From an uncultured Actinomycetes bacterium (GTDB taxonomy: Bacteria; Actinomycetota; Thermoleophilia; RBG-16-64-13), in NCBI GenBank assembly GCA_963718375.1, contig CAVQZD010000005.1, positions 652,841 to 716,840 of the forward strand: a stretch of 64,000 nucleotides of DNA, read 5' to 3'. Numbering within the stretch: the stretch's first letter is position 1; each line of letters opens with the position of its first letter. Under the pieces are notes generated by a model, which made no database searches, was not told the origin of the DNA, and saw nothing but the letters and a program-made list of their open reading frames with translations. The position numbers and the translations under genes are program-made. Positions 23,348-23,845 of the stretch are shown one piece after another.

Positions 23348-23782
23348 ATGAGAGACAAGAGGATCATCACCCTCGCGACCTTGATCGCTGTCATAGCCCT
23401 GACCGTAGGCATCCCTGTATTCGCCTCGGGCTGTGGTGACGACGAGGTAGCCAACGGCGGCCGCATGGCAGAACAGTCCAAGGACCGTGGCGGCGAAGGC
23501 GGCGGCGGACGTGGTATGGGCCGGCTCCAGGACCAGGGCGCCGGCGGAGACGGCATGTGCGCAGGCAACCGTGCTGGTGACGTCAACGGTGACGGCATCT
23601 GCGAACGCGGCGCCGACTGCCCCGGAGCGACCGCCGGAGCGGCCGCCGGTGAGTGCGGCGGCGACTGCCCCGGAGCGACGGGCGGTGACTGTGACGGCAG
23701 CTGCTTGGGCAGCGACAACGGTGACGTCACTGACGATTCTGGCGGCGCCACTTCGGACACACTCCCCAGTTGCTGCCAGTGA
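23348..23782 (+). CDS. small secreted/lipoprotein-like Gly/Asp/Cys-rich protein (9 Cys in the mature part, C-terminal CCQ)
   Basis: AGGAGA RBS 6 nt before the ATG. Signal peptide ending VFASGC, then two DCPGAT repeats. Followed by an intrinsic terminator. Confidence 0.6.
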   Translation: MRDKRIITLATLIAVIALTVGIPVFASGCGDDEVANGGRMAEQSKDRGGEGGGGRGMGRLQDQGAGGDGMCAGNRAGDVNGDGICERGADCPGATAGAAAGECGGDCPGATGGDCDGSCLGSDNGDVTDDSGGATSDTLPSCCQ

Positions 23783-23810
23783 CGCGGCACCGCACCCTCT
23801 GAAGTATCCG

Positions 23811-23845
23811 AAACCGGCGGAGAAGTCCGCCGGTTTTCTTTTTTG
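23811..23845 (+). terminator. rho-independent terminator
   Basis: AACCGGCGGA gaag TCCGCCGGTT stem followed by TTTTCTTTTTT. Confidence 0.7.

Follow-up and report, generated by a model that had tools for sequence, protein, structure and literature searches.

In the MerP-MerT-MerA thiol relay, the HMA-domain protein MerP, which has a GMTCxxC motif, passes Hg(II) between cysteine pairs, first to MerT and from there to MerA. The genes hgcA and hgcB have a single widely reported companion, an ArsR-like regulator gene located upstream of hgcAB (PMC7438021; bioRxiv 10.1101/2022.10.17.512643). The nine-gene SAO locus is proposed to handle a mercury-like metal or organometallics, and the CC/CU motifs of its proteins have been tied to the motif of HgcA. 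It includes SaoC (NF040734), an uncharacterised "dark matter" lipoprotein of approximately 158 aa with a CysCys-COOH end (bioRxiv 10.1101/2022.07.06.499078). The subject of the present analysis is a 144-aa open reading frame (ORF) just upstream of hgcA in a 64,000-nucleotide stretch of DNA from an uncultured Actinomycetes bacterium (contig CAVQZD010000005.1); the whole stretch is called the window. The ORF appears to code for a small exported lipoprotein rich in cysteine, glycine and aspartate. The observations concern the gene itself, its export and lipobox signals, its composition, a family of relatives, independent transcription signals and a synteny with hgcAB in one clade.

The window protein belongs to no described family, and it resembles in kind the small exported, cysteine-rich lipoproteins regarded as putative metal binders. 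Pfam at E<=10 gave no match, metallothionein, HMA and thrombospondin type-3 (TSP3)/dockerin families included, and neither did a PDB profile search at E<=1. NCBIfam at E<=1 returned nothing for the window protein or for its nearest relative, P0001. The initial annotation had not recognised the protein as a described hgcAB accessory, in agreement with these searches and with a literature that names only ArsR-like regulators and ars genes beside hgcAB.

SaoC is the closest analogue in kind. It too is a small protein that has not been characterised; it has a signal or lipoprotein peptide, its chain closes with two cysteines, and its locus is tied to a mercury-like metal. However, its hidden Markov model does not match at E<=1, and the window protein is of Gly/Asp-rich low complexity and ends in CCQ rather than CC-COOH, while in most relatives the tail is one Cys plus Phe. 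No Sao-like genes occur among the 37 window proteins scanned against Pfam or NCBIfam; the 64-kb window is not fully annotated. The comparison with MerP is functional and not one of homology. Both are extracytoplasmic cysteine-containing proteins coded beside cytoplasmic mercury-transforming enzymes, but the window protein has no Pfam HMA match, no GMxCxxC motif and no predicted fold, and the locus holds no MerT/MerC-like transporter. Bacterial metallothioneins (SmtA/BmtA, MymT) are likewise short, cysteine-rich and without a hydrophobic core, and are expected to fold only around metal-thiolate clusters. Unlike the window protein they are cytosolic, have no signal peptide and have more cysteine in a conserved pattern, whereas cysteine positions vary in the window family. 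On visual inspection, a loop GDVNGDGIC..DCP that only the window protein and P0001 have looks like the Ca repeats of thrombospondin type-3 or dockerin, without a Pfam hit. Finally, ArsR-like regulators occupy the same slot immediately upstream of hgcA and often have cysteine motifs, but they are cytoplasmic helix-turn-helix proteins co-transcribed with hgcAB. The window protein is exported and has its own terminator, and the regulator near it, as in its clade, is a PadR/HAAS-Sensor pair, not ArsR.

The ORF is a genuine gene, previously unannotated, as shown by its pattern of codon substitution and by a frame that is kept through indels. Over the first 34 codons, the window and a homologous locus (L110) differ at 8, 0 and 18 first, second and third codon positions, respectively. 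Of the resulting codon changes, 13 are synonymous and 7 conservative. The reading frame is kept in homologues across many indels, and conservation at the protein level covers the signal peptide, the lipobox, the adjoining GDD..GRMAQQ.QDRD segment and the C-terminal tail. The suspicion that the ORF might be an artefact of GC-rich DNA is not borne out by this substitution pattern.

The N-terminus of the protein consists of MRDKR, 19 uncharged residues and the sequence F-A-S-G-C29. It satisfies two lipobox expressions, PS51257-type (PROSITE) and G+LPPv2. A positively charged n-region, an h-region and a lipobox cysteine within about 35 residues, as in bacterial lipoproteins, are all present. Judging from these signals, the protein is most likely exported and lipid-anchored at Cys29. 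It has 10 cysteines in total, namely Cys29 and nine others. Two DCPGAT motifs, at aa 90 and aa 106, are coded by a direct repeat of 31 nt, whose copies at 23607 and 23655 are 48 nt apart and share 90% identity. This duplication belongs to a hypervariable region of C-x3-C and CxGxC repeats. The protein ends in ...LPSCCQ, directly before the TGA. The predicted mature chain has approximately 115 residues, a net charge of -14, 28% Gly, 9% Cys and no His. An AlphaFold model from a 15-sequence alignment has a mean predicted local distance difference test score of 49, too low to be usable as a fold, with helix 2-21, in the signal peptide, as the sole predicted element. The remainder of the chain is probably intrinsically disordered. 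The features named in the initial annotation (ORF, ribosome-binding site, signal peptide, cysteine content, two DCPGAT motifs and CCQ end) are all present in the sequence, and its description of the product as thiol-rich, acidic and exported agrees with the lipobox, the 10 cysteines and the net charge.

The ORF founds a small, unannotated and lineage-restricted family of short lipoproteins. A word-indexed search of 5.8 billion proteins found one relative, P0001 (E = 6e-33), which has 137 aa, is 58% identical to the window protein and shares its ...SDTLPSCCQ end. An exhaustive HMMER search with a two-sequence profile spanned E = 2e-69 to 6e-6 and added seven small proteins, P0009, P0010, P0012 and P0014-P0017 (E = 1e-27 to 6e-6); the long Asp/Gly-rich P0011 and P0013 matched on low-complexity stretches only. 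A nine-sequence profile returned 15 proteins, 9 of them new. Altogether the family has about 18 members of 72-154 aa from metagenomes, in synteny with an Actinomycetes metagenome-assembled genome, none with a functional name and at most called "hypothetical protein". The homologues were detected by protein-level search only; a scan of metagenome contigs with the family alignment found nothing. P0026 (L119, 50% GC) is remote and of doubtful membership, and its gene neighbourhood is unrelated.

Within the family, the signal peptide and lipobox form the most conserved protein segment. The lipobox cysteine is kept in 13 of the 18 proteins listed, and by eye also in P0017 and P0022. After the lipobox, members have 7-16% Cys, 16-28% Gly, 11-28% Asp plus Glu, no His and a net charge of -7 to -22, with frequent C-x3-C spacing. 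The number and positions of the cysteines vary, and in 10 of 13 members the count after the lipobox cysteine is odd. The tail of most members reads ...(D)EPFG(S/D)EP(I/L)CF. The CCQ end is found only in the window protein and P0001; other tails are ...CF, ...RF, ...CR and ...RQ, and P0009 ends in ...LRF with no cysteine. At the related loci the lipoprotein is 32-50% identical to that of the window, compared with 70-92% for neighbouring proteins, its ends being conserved and its repeat-rich middle hypervariable. A reading of these proteins as precursors of ribosomally synthesised and post-translationally modified peptides was rejected, the N-terminus being that of a classical signal/lipoprotein peptide and a modifying enzyme being adjacent in no locus.

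The lipoprotein gene appears to be its own transcription unit, since both a promoter motif and a hairpin at its 3' end are conserved. The motif is GGAAC-N16-18-CGTC. In the subgroup of the window its end stands 32-34 nt ahead of the start codon at five distinct loci (the window, L110, L113, L114/L115 and L122). Promoters read by extracytoplasmic function (ECF) sigma factors are typically marked by an "AAC" in their -35 element and a "CGT" in their -10 element. Within the window alone the motif is no more frequent than chance predicts (3 against an expected 2.8), so the argument relies on its fixed position in orthologous loci. An ECF sigma factor may drive the gene; none is encoded among those window proteins that were scanned against Pfam or NCBIfam. 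Further upstream lies a second block, alignable in most loci, with the consensus TTCTTyACACTTTCCT...CTAGACT. This block may act as a sigma-70-like promoter or as a binding site for a regulator, and its spacing of 20 nt between TTCACA and TAGACT in the window is long for a sigma-70 promoter. A Shine-Dalgarno sequence, AAGGAGA or AGGGAGA, is present in every aligned locus.

At the other end of the gene, the hairpin (stem at 23810-23837, 7 GC pairs, -21.4 kcal/mol) is followed by TTTTCTTTTTT at 23834-23844, giving the GC-rich stem-loop and U-run of an intrinsic terminator. The hairpin, GAAGACCGGCGGA-NNNN-TCCGCCGGTCTTC, recurs in all 11 loci with 97.5% of cells paired and compensatory changes in 4 pairs, and occurs once in the 64-kb window. 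The U-run after it is weaker in the relatives. The separate transcription unit with its own terminator, as initially annotated, is supported by the conservation of the promoter motif and of the terminator hairpin. The expression signals are more conserved than the middle of the coding sequence.

Two further possibilities at this gene were considered and dropped. Selenocysteine read-through of the TGA was rejected, since the downstream frame is not that of hgcA, a T-run follows the hairpin, and relatives keep the stop and the same hairpin. A 5' hairpin is not claimed as a cis-regulatory RNA: it overlaps the spacer of GGAAC...CGTC and its covariation is modest. Rfam gave no match to 23100-23950 at E<=1, or to the whole window at gathering thresholds. 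An 18-nt direct repeat, CTGGCGGCGCC(C/A)CTTCGG (17/18 identical), occurs at 23292-23309, in the promoter/5' leader, and at 23739-23756, in the 3' part of the coding sequence; it may be chance in GC-rich DNA.

Downstream of the terminator, hgcA starts with GTG at 23886 after a spacer of 103 nt and reads MTESTSTPCCCQ; the start of hgcB overlaps its end, and both genes pass the NCBIfam equivalog cut-offs. The GTG has no Shine-Dalgarno sequence. A palindrome and a -10-like hexamer precede it, and TAACATA is found upstream of hgcA in L001 and L122 as well. This suggests that hgcAB has its own promoter or operator, with a transcript that is possibly leaderless.

At five distinct loci, namely the window, L001, L114/L115, L117 and L122, the family gene precedes hgcAB on the same strand by 0.1-1.9 kb. 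The order in L114 matches the window almost gene for gene. Elsewhere the linkage persists despite reshuffled neighbours, with a Zn-ribbon gene present or not, PadR/Sensor present or not, and a membrane protein of about 340 aa on either side. These cases all belong to one clade, whose wider region, from the acetyl-CoA hydrolase to DUF2089, is itself syntenic, so they are not independent observations. The initial annotation had proposed a search for homologues upstream of hgcA in relatives; they are there in L001, L114/L115, L117 and L122, on the same strand, and are confined to one syntenic clade. The evidence is thus for positional linkage of the family to hgcAB, not for functional coupling. 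A metagenome scan with HgcA gave only distant hgcA loci (<=54% identity over long matches), none carrying the family gene. The gene 184 nt downstream of P0001, an 89-aa fragment, was not recovered by a search with the N-terminal 100 aa of HgcA. L118, whose atypical member is without the lipobox cysteine, shows no hgcAB, its contig ending just past the gene.

The coordinates of these features and the gene orders of the relatives are collected in Table 1.

Table 1. Features of the window and gene orders at related loci. Orders are read 5' to 3' on the strand of the lipoprotein gene; (-) marks genes on the opposite strand.
Feature	Position	Strand	Remarks
Lipoprotein precursor coding sequence, 144 aa, Cys/Gly/Asp-rich	23348..23782	+	TGA stop included
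Shine-Dalgarno sequence AAGGAGA	23335..23341	+	6 nt ahead of ATG
Predicted signal peptide (aa 1-28) and lipobox Cys29 (FASG/C)	23348..23434	+	Matches to lipobox expressions
Internal duplication coding both DCPGAT motifs	23607..23685	+	Direct-repeat family D2
C-terminal vicinal Cys pair (CCQ)	23771..23779	+	ORF translation
Conserved upstream block TTCTCTCTTCACACTTTCCT ... CCTAGACT	23240..23278	+	Aligned in 8/10 loci, padR adjacent or not
GGAAC-N18-CGTC, ECF-sigma-type -35/-10 motif	23287..23313	+	Ends 34 nt ahead of ATG
Intrinsic terminator	23810..23845	+	12-bp stem, 4-nt loop, T-run
Palindrome CCAAGCTATAGCTGGG (23857-23872) and TAACAT -10-like hexamer (23874-23879)	23857..23879	+	6 nt before hgcA GTG
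hgcA (corrinoid protein), N-terminal PCCCQ	23886..24998	+	NF040863, 401.6 bits (cut-off 275); Pfam CdhD
hgcB (2x[4Fe-4S] ferredoxin)	24995..25288	+	NF040864, 114.6 bits (cut-off 99)
PadR-like regulator, divergent from lipoprotein gene	22747..23124	-	Pfam PF03551, E = 1e-20
Membrane protein, HAAS domain and "Sensor" multi-transmembrane domain, PadR partner	21762..22754	-	PF13796, E = 3.5e-35
Corrinoid and methylene-tetrahydrofolate reductase-domain genes	33188-33886; 41047-41781; 36208-36900	-; +; -	
L114 / L115 (P0017)			Acetyl-CoA hydrolase-GNAT, Sensor(-), PadR(-), lipoprotein, Zn-ribbon membrane protein, hgcA, hgcB, ... DUF2089, 98-aa, SHOCT-like; HgcA 72% identical to window
L001 (P0022; 1.1-Mb contig, Actinomycetes metagenome-assembled genome)			Sensor(-), PadR(-), lipoprotein (1551-1961), two Zn-ribbon genes, hgcA, hgcB; HgcA 74% identical to window
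L117 (P0020)			PadR(-), lipoprotein, Zn-ribbon gene, hgcA start; HgcA partial
L122 (P0015; 1.6-Mb contig)			Acetyl-CoA hydrolase, 342-aa membrane protein, lipoprotein, Zn-ribbon gene, hgcA, hgcB; no PadR/Sensor; HgcA 77% identical to window
L111 (P0010)			Divergent PadR upstream; contig stops after lipoprotein gene
L112 (P0012; 52-kb contig)			Acetyl-CoA hydrolase (92% identical to window's), Zn-ribbon gene, lipoprotein, 337-aa membrane protein, PemK(-)
Accompanying gene pair	L001:2149-3766; L114:8591-9424 and 10931-11998; L122:4853-5881 and 6498-7472; L112:4853-5611 and 6693-7706		

Two unannotated genes accompany the lipoprotein gene in relatives in variable order. One codes for a protein with an N-terminal Zn-ribbon, a transmembrane segment and a conserved C-terminal domain, the other for the membrane protein of about 340 aa. 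Both are retained at loci without hgcAB, and neither occurs in the 64-kb window. L112 (contig_77614) and L122 (contig_15962) come from related organisms in one sample (ERZ25039527). Because they differ at the syntenic site, which in L122 holds the lipoprotein gene, the Zn-ribbon gene and hgcAB, and in L112 the Zn-ribbon gene, the lipoprotein gene and the membrane protein gene without hgcAB, a recent gain or loss of hgcAB within the clade is suggested.

The favoured reading is that the protein is a surface-tethered ligand that binds thiophilic or divalent metals through clustered thiolates and carboxylates. It is held tentatively, with a probability of roughly 0.45. According to this reading, the precursor would be exported by the Sec pathway, cleaved at the lipobox and lipidated on Cys29. 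The lipid anchor would then tether an acidic chain of about 115 residues on the outer face of the cytoplasmic membrane. Its gene would be expressed independently, between an ECF-sigma-like promoter region and a hairpin terminator. At the cell surface, the thiolates (C-x3-C, CxGxC, terminal CC) and carboxylates would bind metal cations, and this metallothionein-like tethered ligand would capture or buffer metals of the envelope. Hg(II) is a candidate ligand because the family recurs just upstream of hgcAB; a role specific to mercury is speculative.

The metal-ligand model is favoured because cysteine is held at 7-16% in a low-complexity chain that is otherwise free-running and has no His or aromatic residues. 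Likewise, the odd and shifting cysteine counts fit metal-thiolate chemistry better than a fixed disulfide fold. The functional assignment as a whole draws on composition and position, in an uncultured lineage and a narrow family.

Several points weigh against the metal-ligand model. The database searches given above found no homology to a characterised metal-binding protein or domain. The cysteine content is well under that of true metallothioneins, and exported cysteines could be oxidised or serve another role. The fast evolution of the central region would also suit a non-specific surface polymer. As to mercury, L112 has no hgcAB, PadR or Sensor within 6 kb on either side of the lipoprotein gene. 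L121, of the same subgroup, has the lipoprotein gene followed by the same membrane protein gene and no hgcAB, and L116, whose atypical member is without the lipobox cysteine, has none either. None of 108 hgcA loci from other phyla (L002-L109) was hit when the family was compared with them by tblastn; many of these loci have an ArsR-like gene upstream of hgcA. The hgcAB-linked cases all come from the one syntenic clade already described. A terminator separates the lipoprotein gene from hgcAB, and the two appear to be regulated separately, since the GGAAC...CGTC motif was not found upstream of hgcA. With a terminator between the genes, the family absent from L002-L109 and co-location in one actinobacterial clade only, the lipoprotein gene is not to be counted as a member of an hgcAB operon. 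The functional coupling to HgcAB that had been proposed thus keeps its recurrent upstream position, but it is weakened by the members without hgcAB (L112, L121) and by a promoter motif that the genes do not share.

A different account of the same protein would make it a lineage-specific lipoprotein of the envelope or of stress responses, with no part in metal trafficking: a disordered acidic polymer, induced by an envelope-stress ECF sigma factor and found beside hgcAB by inherited gene order. As a variant, the polymer is possibly cross-linked by disulfides or binds Ca2+ through Asp/Gly loops such as GDVNGDG. This account is somewhat doubtful. It has on its side the ECF-type motif at a fixed distance from the start codon, the envelope-signalling modules nearby (the HAAS-PadR dyad and the DUF2089/SHOCT-like genes), the wider synteny among the window, L114 and L122, the members without hgcAB and a hypervariable central region that evolves by repeats. 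Cysteine is costly, and rare in exported bacterial proteins unless functional. Its enrichment to 7-16%, maintained through a region that otherwise evolves freely, weighs against this account. The mostly odd cysteine numbers at unfixed positions speak against a fixed disulfide scaffold, and Ca2+ binding lacks any Pfam match to TSP3, dockerin or other Ca-binding repeats.

The protein could also be a dedicated factor that captures extracellular Hg(II), chiefly with its terminal CC pair, and delivers it to HgcAB, passing the ion in a MerP-like manner toward the cysteine-bearing N-terminus of HgcA and the CC tail of HgcB. The upstream, same-strand position 0.1-1.9 kb from hgcAB, kept in five distinct loci despite rearrangements, would fit such a factor, as would the vicinal CC pair of the window protein and P0001. 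The Cys-packed N-terminal motif of HgcA has, moreover, been proposed to contact the heavy-metal atom (bioRxiv 10.1101/2022.07.06.499078). Nevertheless, delivery to HgcAB is unlikely. Most members end in ...EPICF with a single cysteine, and P0009 in ...LRF with none. L112 and L121 keep the gene without hgcAB, and the family is absent from all sampled hgcA loci of other phyla. A strong terminator and a different promoter motif stand between the genes, and no membrane transporter that would bridge the outside and the inside was identified in the locus.

The initial annotation had also set the CCQ tail of the lipoprotein beside the PCCCQ of HgcA. The word does occur in both genes. However, the underlying 9-mer, TGCTGCCAG, is found 3 times in the window, where 1.1 occurrences are expected, and at least 3 turn up in 14 of 100 shuffles. 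Its presence in both genes was put down to chance, not to duplication or coupling. HgcA generally bears an N-terminal CU (selenocysteine) or CC motif, sometimes "packed" with extra cysteines (Haft & Gwadz, bioRxiv 10.1101/2022.07.06.499078), and the PCCCQ of the window is this known motif in a non-selenocysteine form of PCUGP. In the clade, HgcA reads ...SCCCQAKPY in L114/L115 and ...PCACAAKPY in L001/L117, and the lipoproteins of these loci end in ...EPICF or ...EVLCF, as most relatives do in the former. The HgcA CCCQ is therefore a feature of the clade, the CCQ tail is confined to the window protein and P0001, and the word shared with HgcA is no evidence of coupling.

Two observations on HgcA N-termini may be added. 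The Cys-packed segment lies at 23907-23921 in the window (PCCCQ), at about 9515 in L114 (SCCCQ) and at about 3900-4000 in L001 (PCAC...PCACA), and the database call of the L114 hgcA (290 aa) omits it. At L030:2210-2350, in a Mobilitalea-like metagenome-assembled genome, a 46-aa ORF rich in CC/CCC motifs (MDKEGCCN...GGCCCGDNTCGE) is located between hgcA and the ArsR-like gene and runs into the beginning of the hgcA match. This ORF probably represents a Cys-packed extension at the N-terminus of HgcA that the annotation has missed.

The metal-ligand and delivery ideas can be carried one step further. The protein would then be the first dedicated extracellular accessory of HgcAB, a lipid-tethered disordered polythiol "antenna" in certain anaerobic Actinobacteria that captures Hg(II) at their surface and raises its availability for uptake and methylation. 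Its induction, apart from that of hgcAB, would depend on an ECF sigma factor or on the envelope-signalling HAAS-PadR pair. This is a shade less likely even than delivery.

The neighbouring regulator suggests yet another role. PadR regulators commonly control a divergent neighbour, and some lipoproteins modulate sensor kinases. The protein might therefore be an extracytoplasmic partner or target of the divergent HAAS-PadR/Sensor pair, either modulating the sensor or being the main gene repressed by PadR. The divergent padR-lipoprotein order is found in the window, L001, L111, L114, L115 and L117 (79-86% identity). PF22564 matches the membrane protein of the window with 24.4 bits, just below the cut-off of 27. 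HAAS-PadR dyads have been proposed as transducers of membrane signals (PMC11237479), and an 11-nt direct repeat flanks the intergenic region of the window. This role is improbable, as L110, L112, L118, L121 and L122 have no adjacent PadR/Sensor, the pair being missing both where hgcAB is present (L122) and where it is not (L112). Furthermore, PadR-less loci retain the lipoprotein promoter block as well, and the 11-nt repeat is not seen in other loci. The repeat, AGTCTTGATTC, is perfect; its copies, 85 nt apart, lie at 23147-23157, in the padR promoter region, and at 23232-23242, just upstream of the conserved lipoprotein promoter block.

The remaining alternative, an accidental ORF in GC-rich low-complexity DNA, is effectively refuted: long overlapping ORFs on the antisense strand (211 and 175 aa, usual in 63% GC DNA), a smaller difference in GC content between third and second codon positions than in adjacent genes, and homologues called at most "hypothetical protein" would suit it, but they are outweighed by the substitution pattern against L110, by a signal peptide, lipobox and C-tail kept with in-frame indels in about 18 homologues, and by a conserved Shine-Dalgarno sequence, promoter motif and terminator that frame the ORF exactly.

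Some features of the wider window deserve mention. Downstream of hgcB, at 25435-27171 (+), lie genes for a 111-aa protein with a single transmembrane segment, a DUF2089 (helix-turn-helix) protein, a 98-aa transmembrane protein and a SHOCT-like protein, kept in L114 with 46-90% identity. This module is of the type that PMC11237479 discusses as envelope-associated. Genes for two B12-binding corrinoid proteins and a protein with a methylene-tetrahydrofolate reductase C-terminal domain are found 8-17 kb from hgcAB and point to corrinoid-dependent methyl transfer metabolism in the host. On the other side, at 13400-17499 (-), three tandem PGA_cap (capsule synthesis) paralogues lie upstream of an ADP-forming acyl-CoA ligase and an acetyl-CoA hydrolase-GNAT fusion, an arrangement that also flanks the locus in L112, L114 and L122.

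Beyond ArsR-like regulators no accessory genes of hgcAB have been described. In the clade of the window, hgcAB is found beside a HAAS-PadR pair in place of the usual ArsR. The lipoprotein offers a concrete candidate, one that can be cloned, for asking whether thiols at the cell surface are genetically encoded partners in methylation. Even if it should prove unrelated to mercury, a previously unannotated family of about 18 members is now defined, with expression signals that are unusually well conserved.

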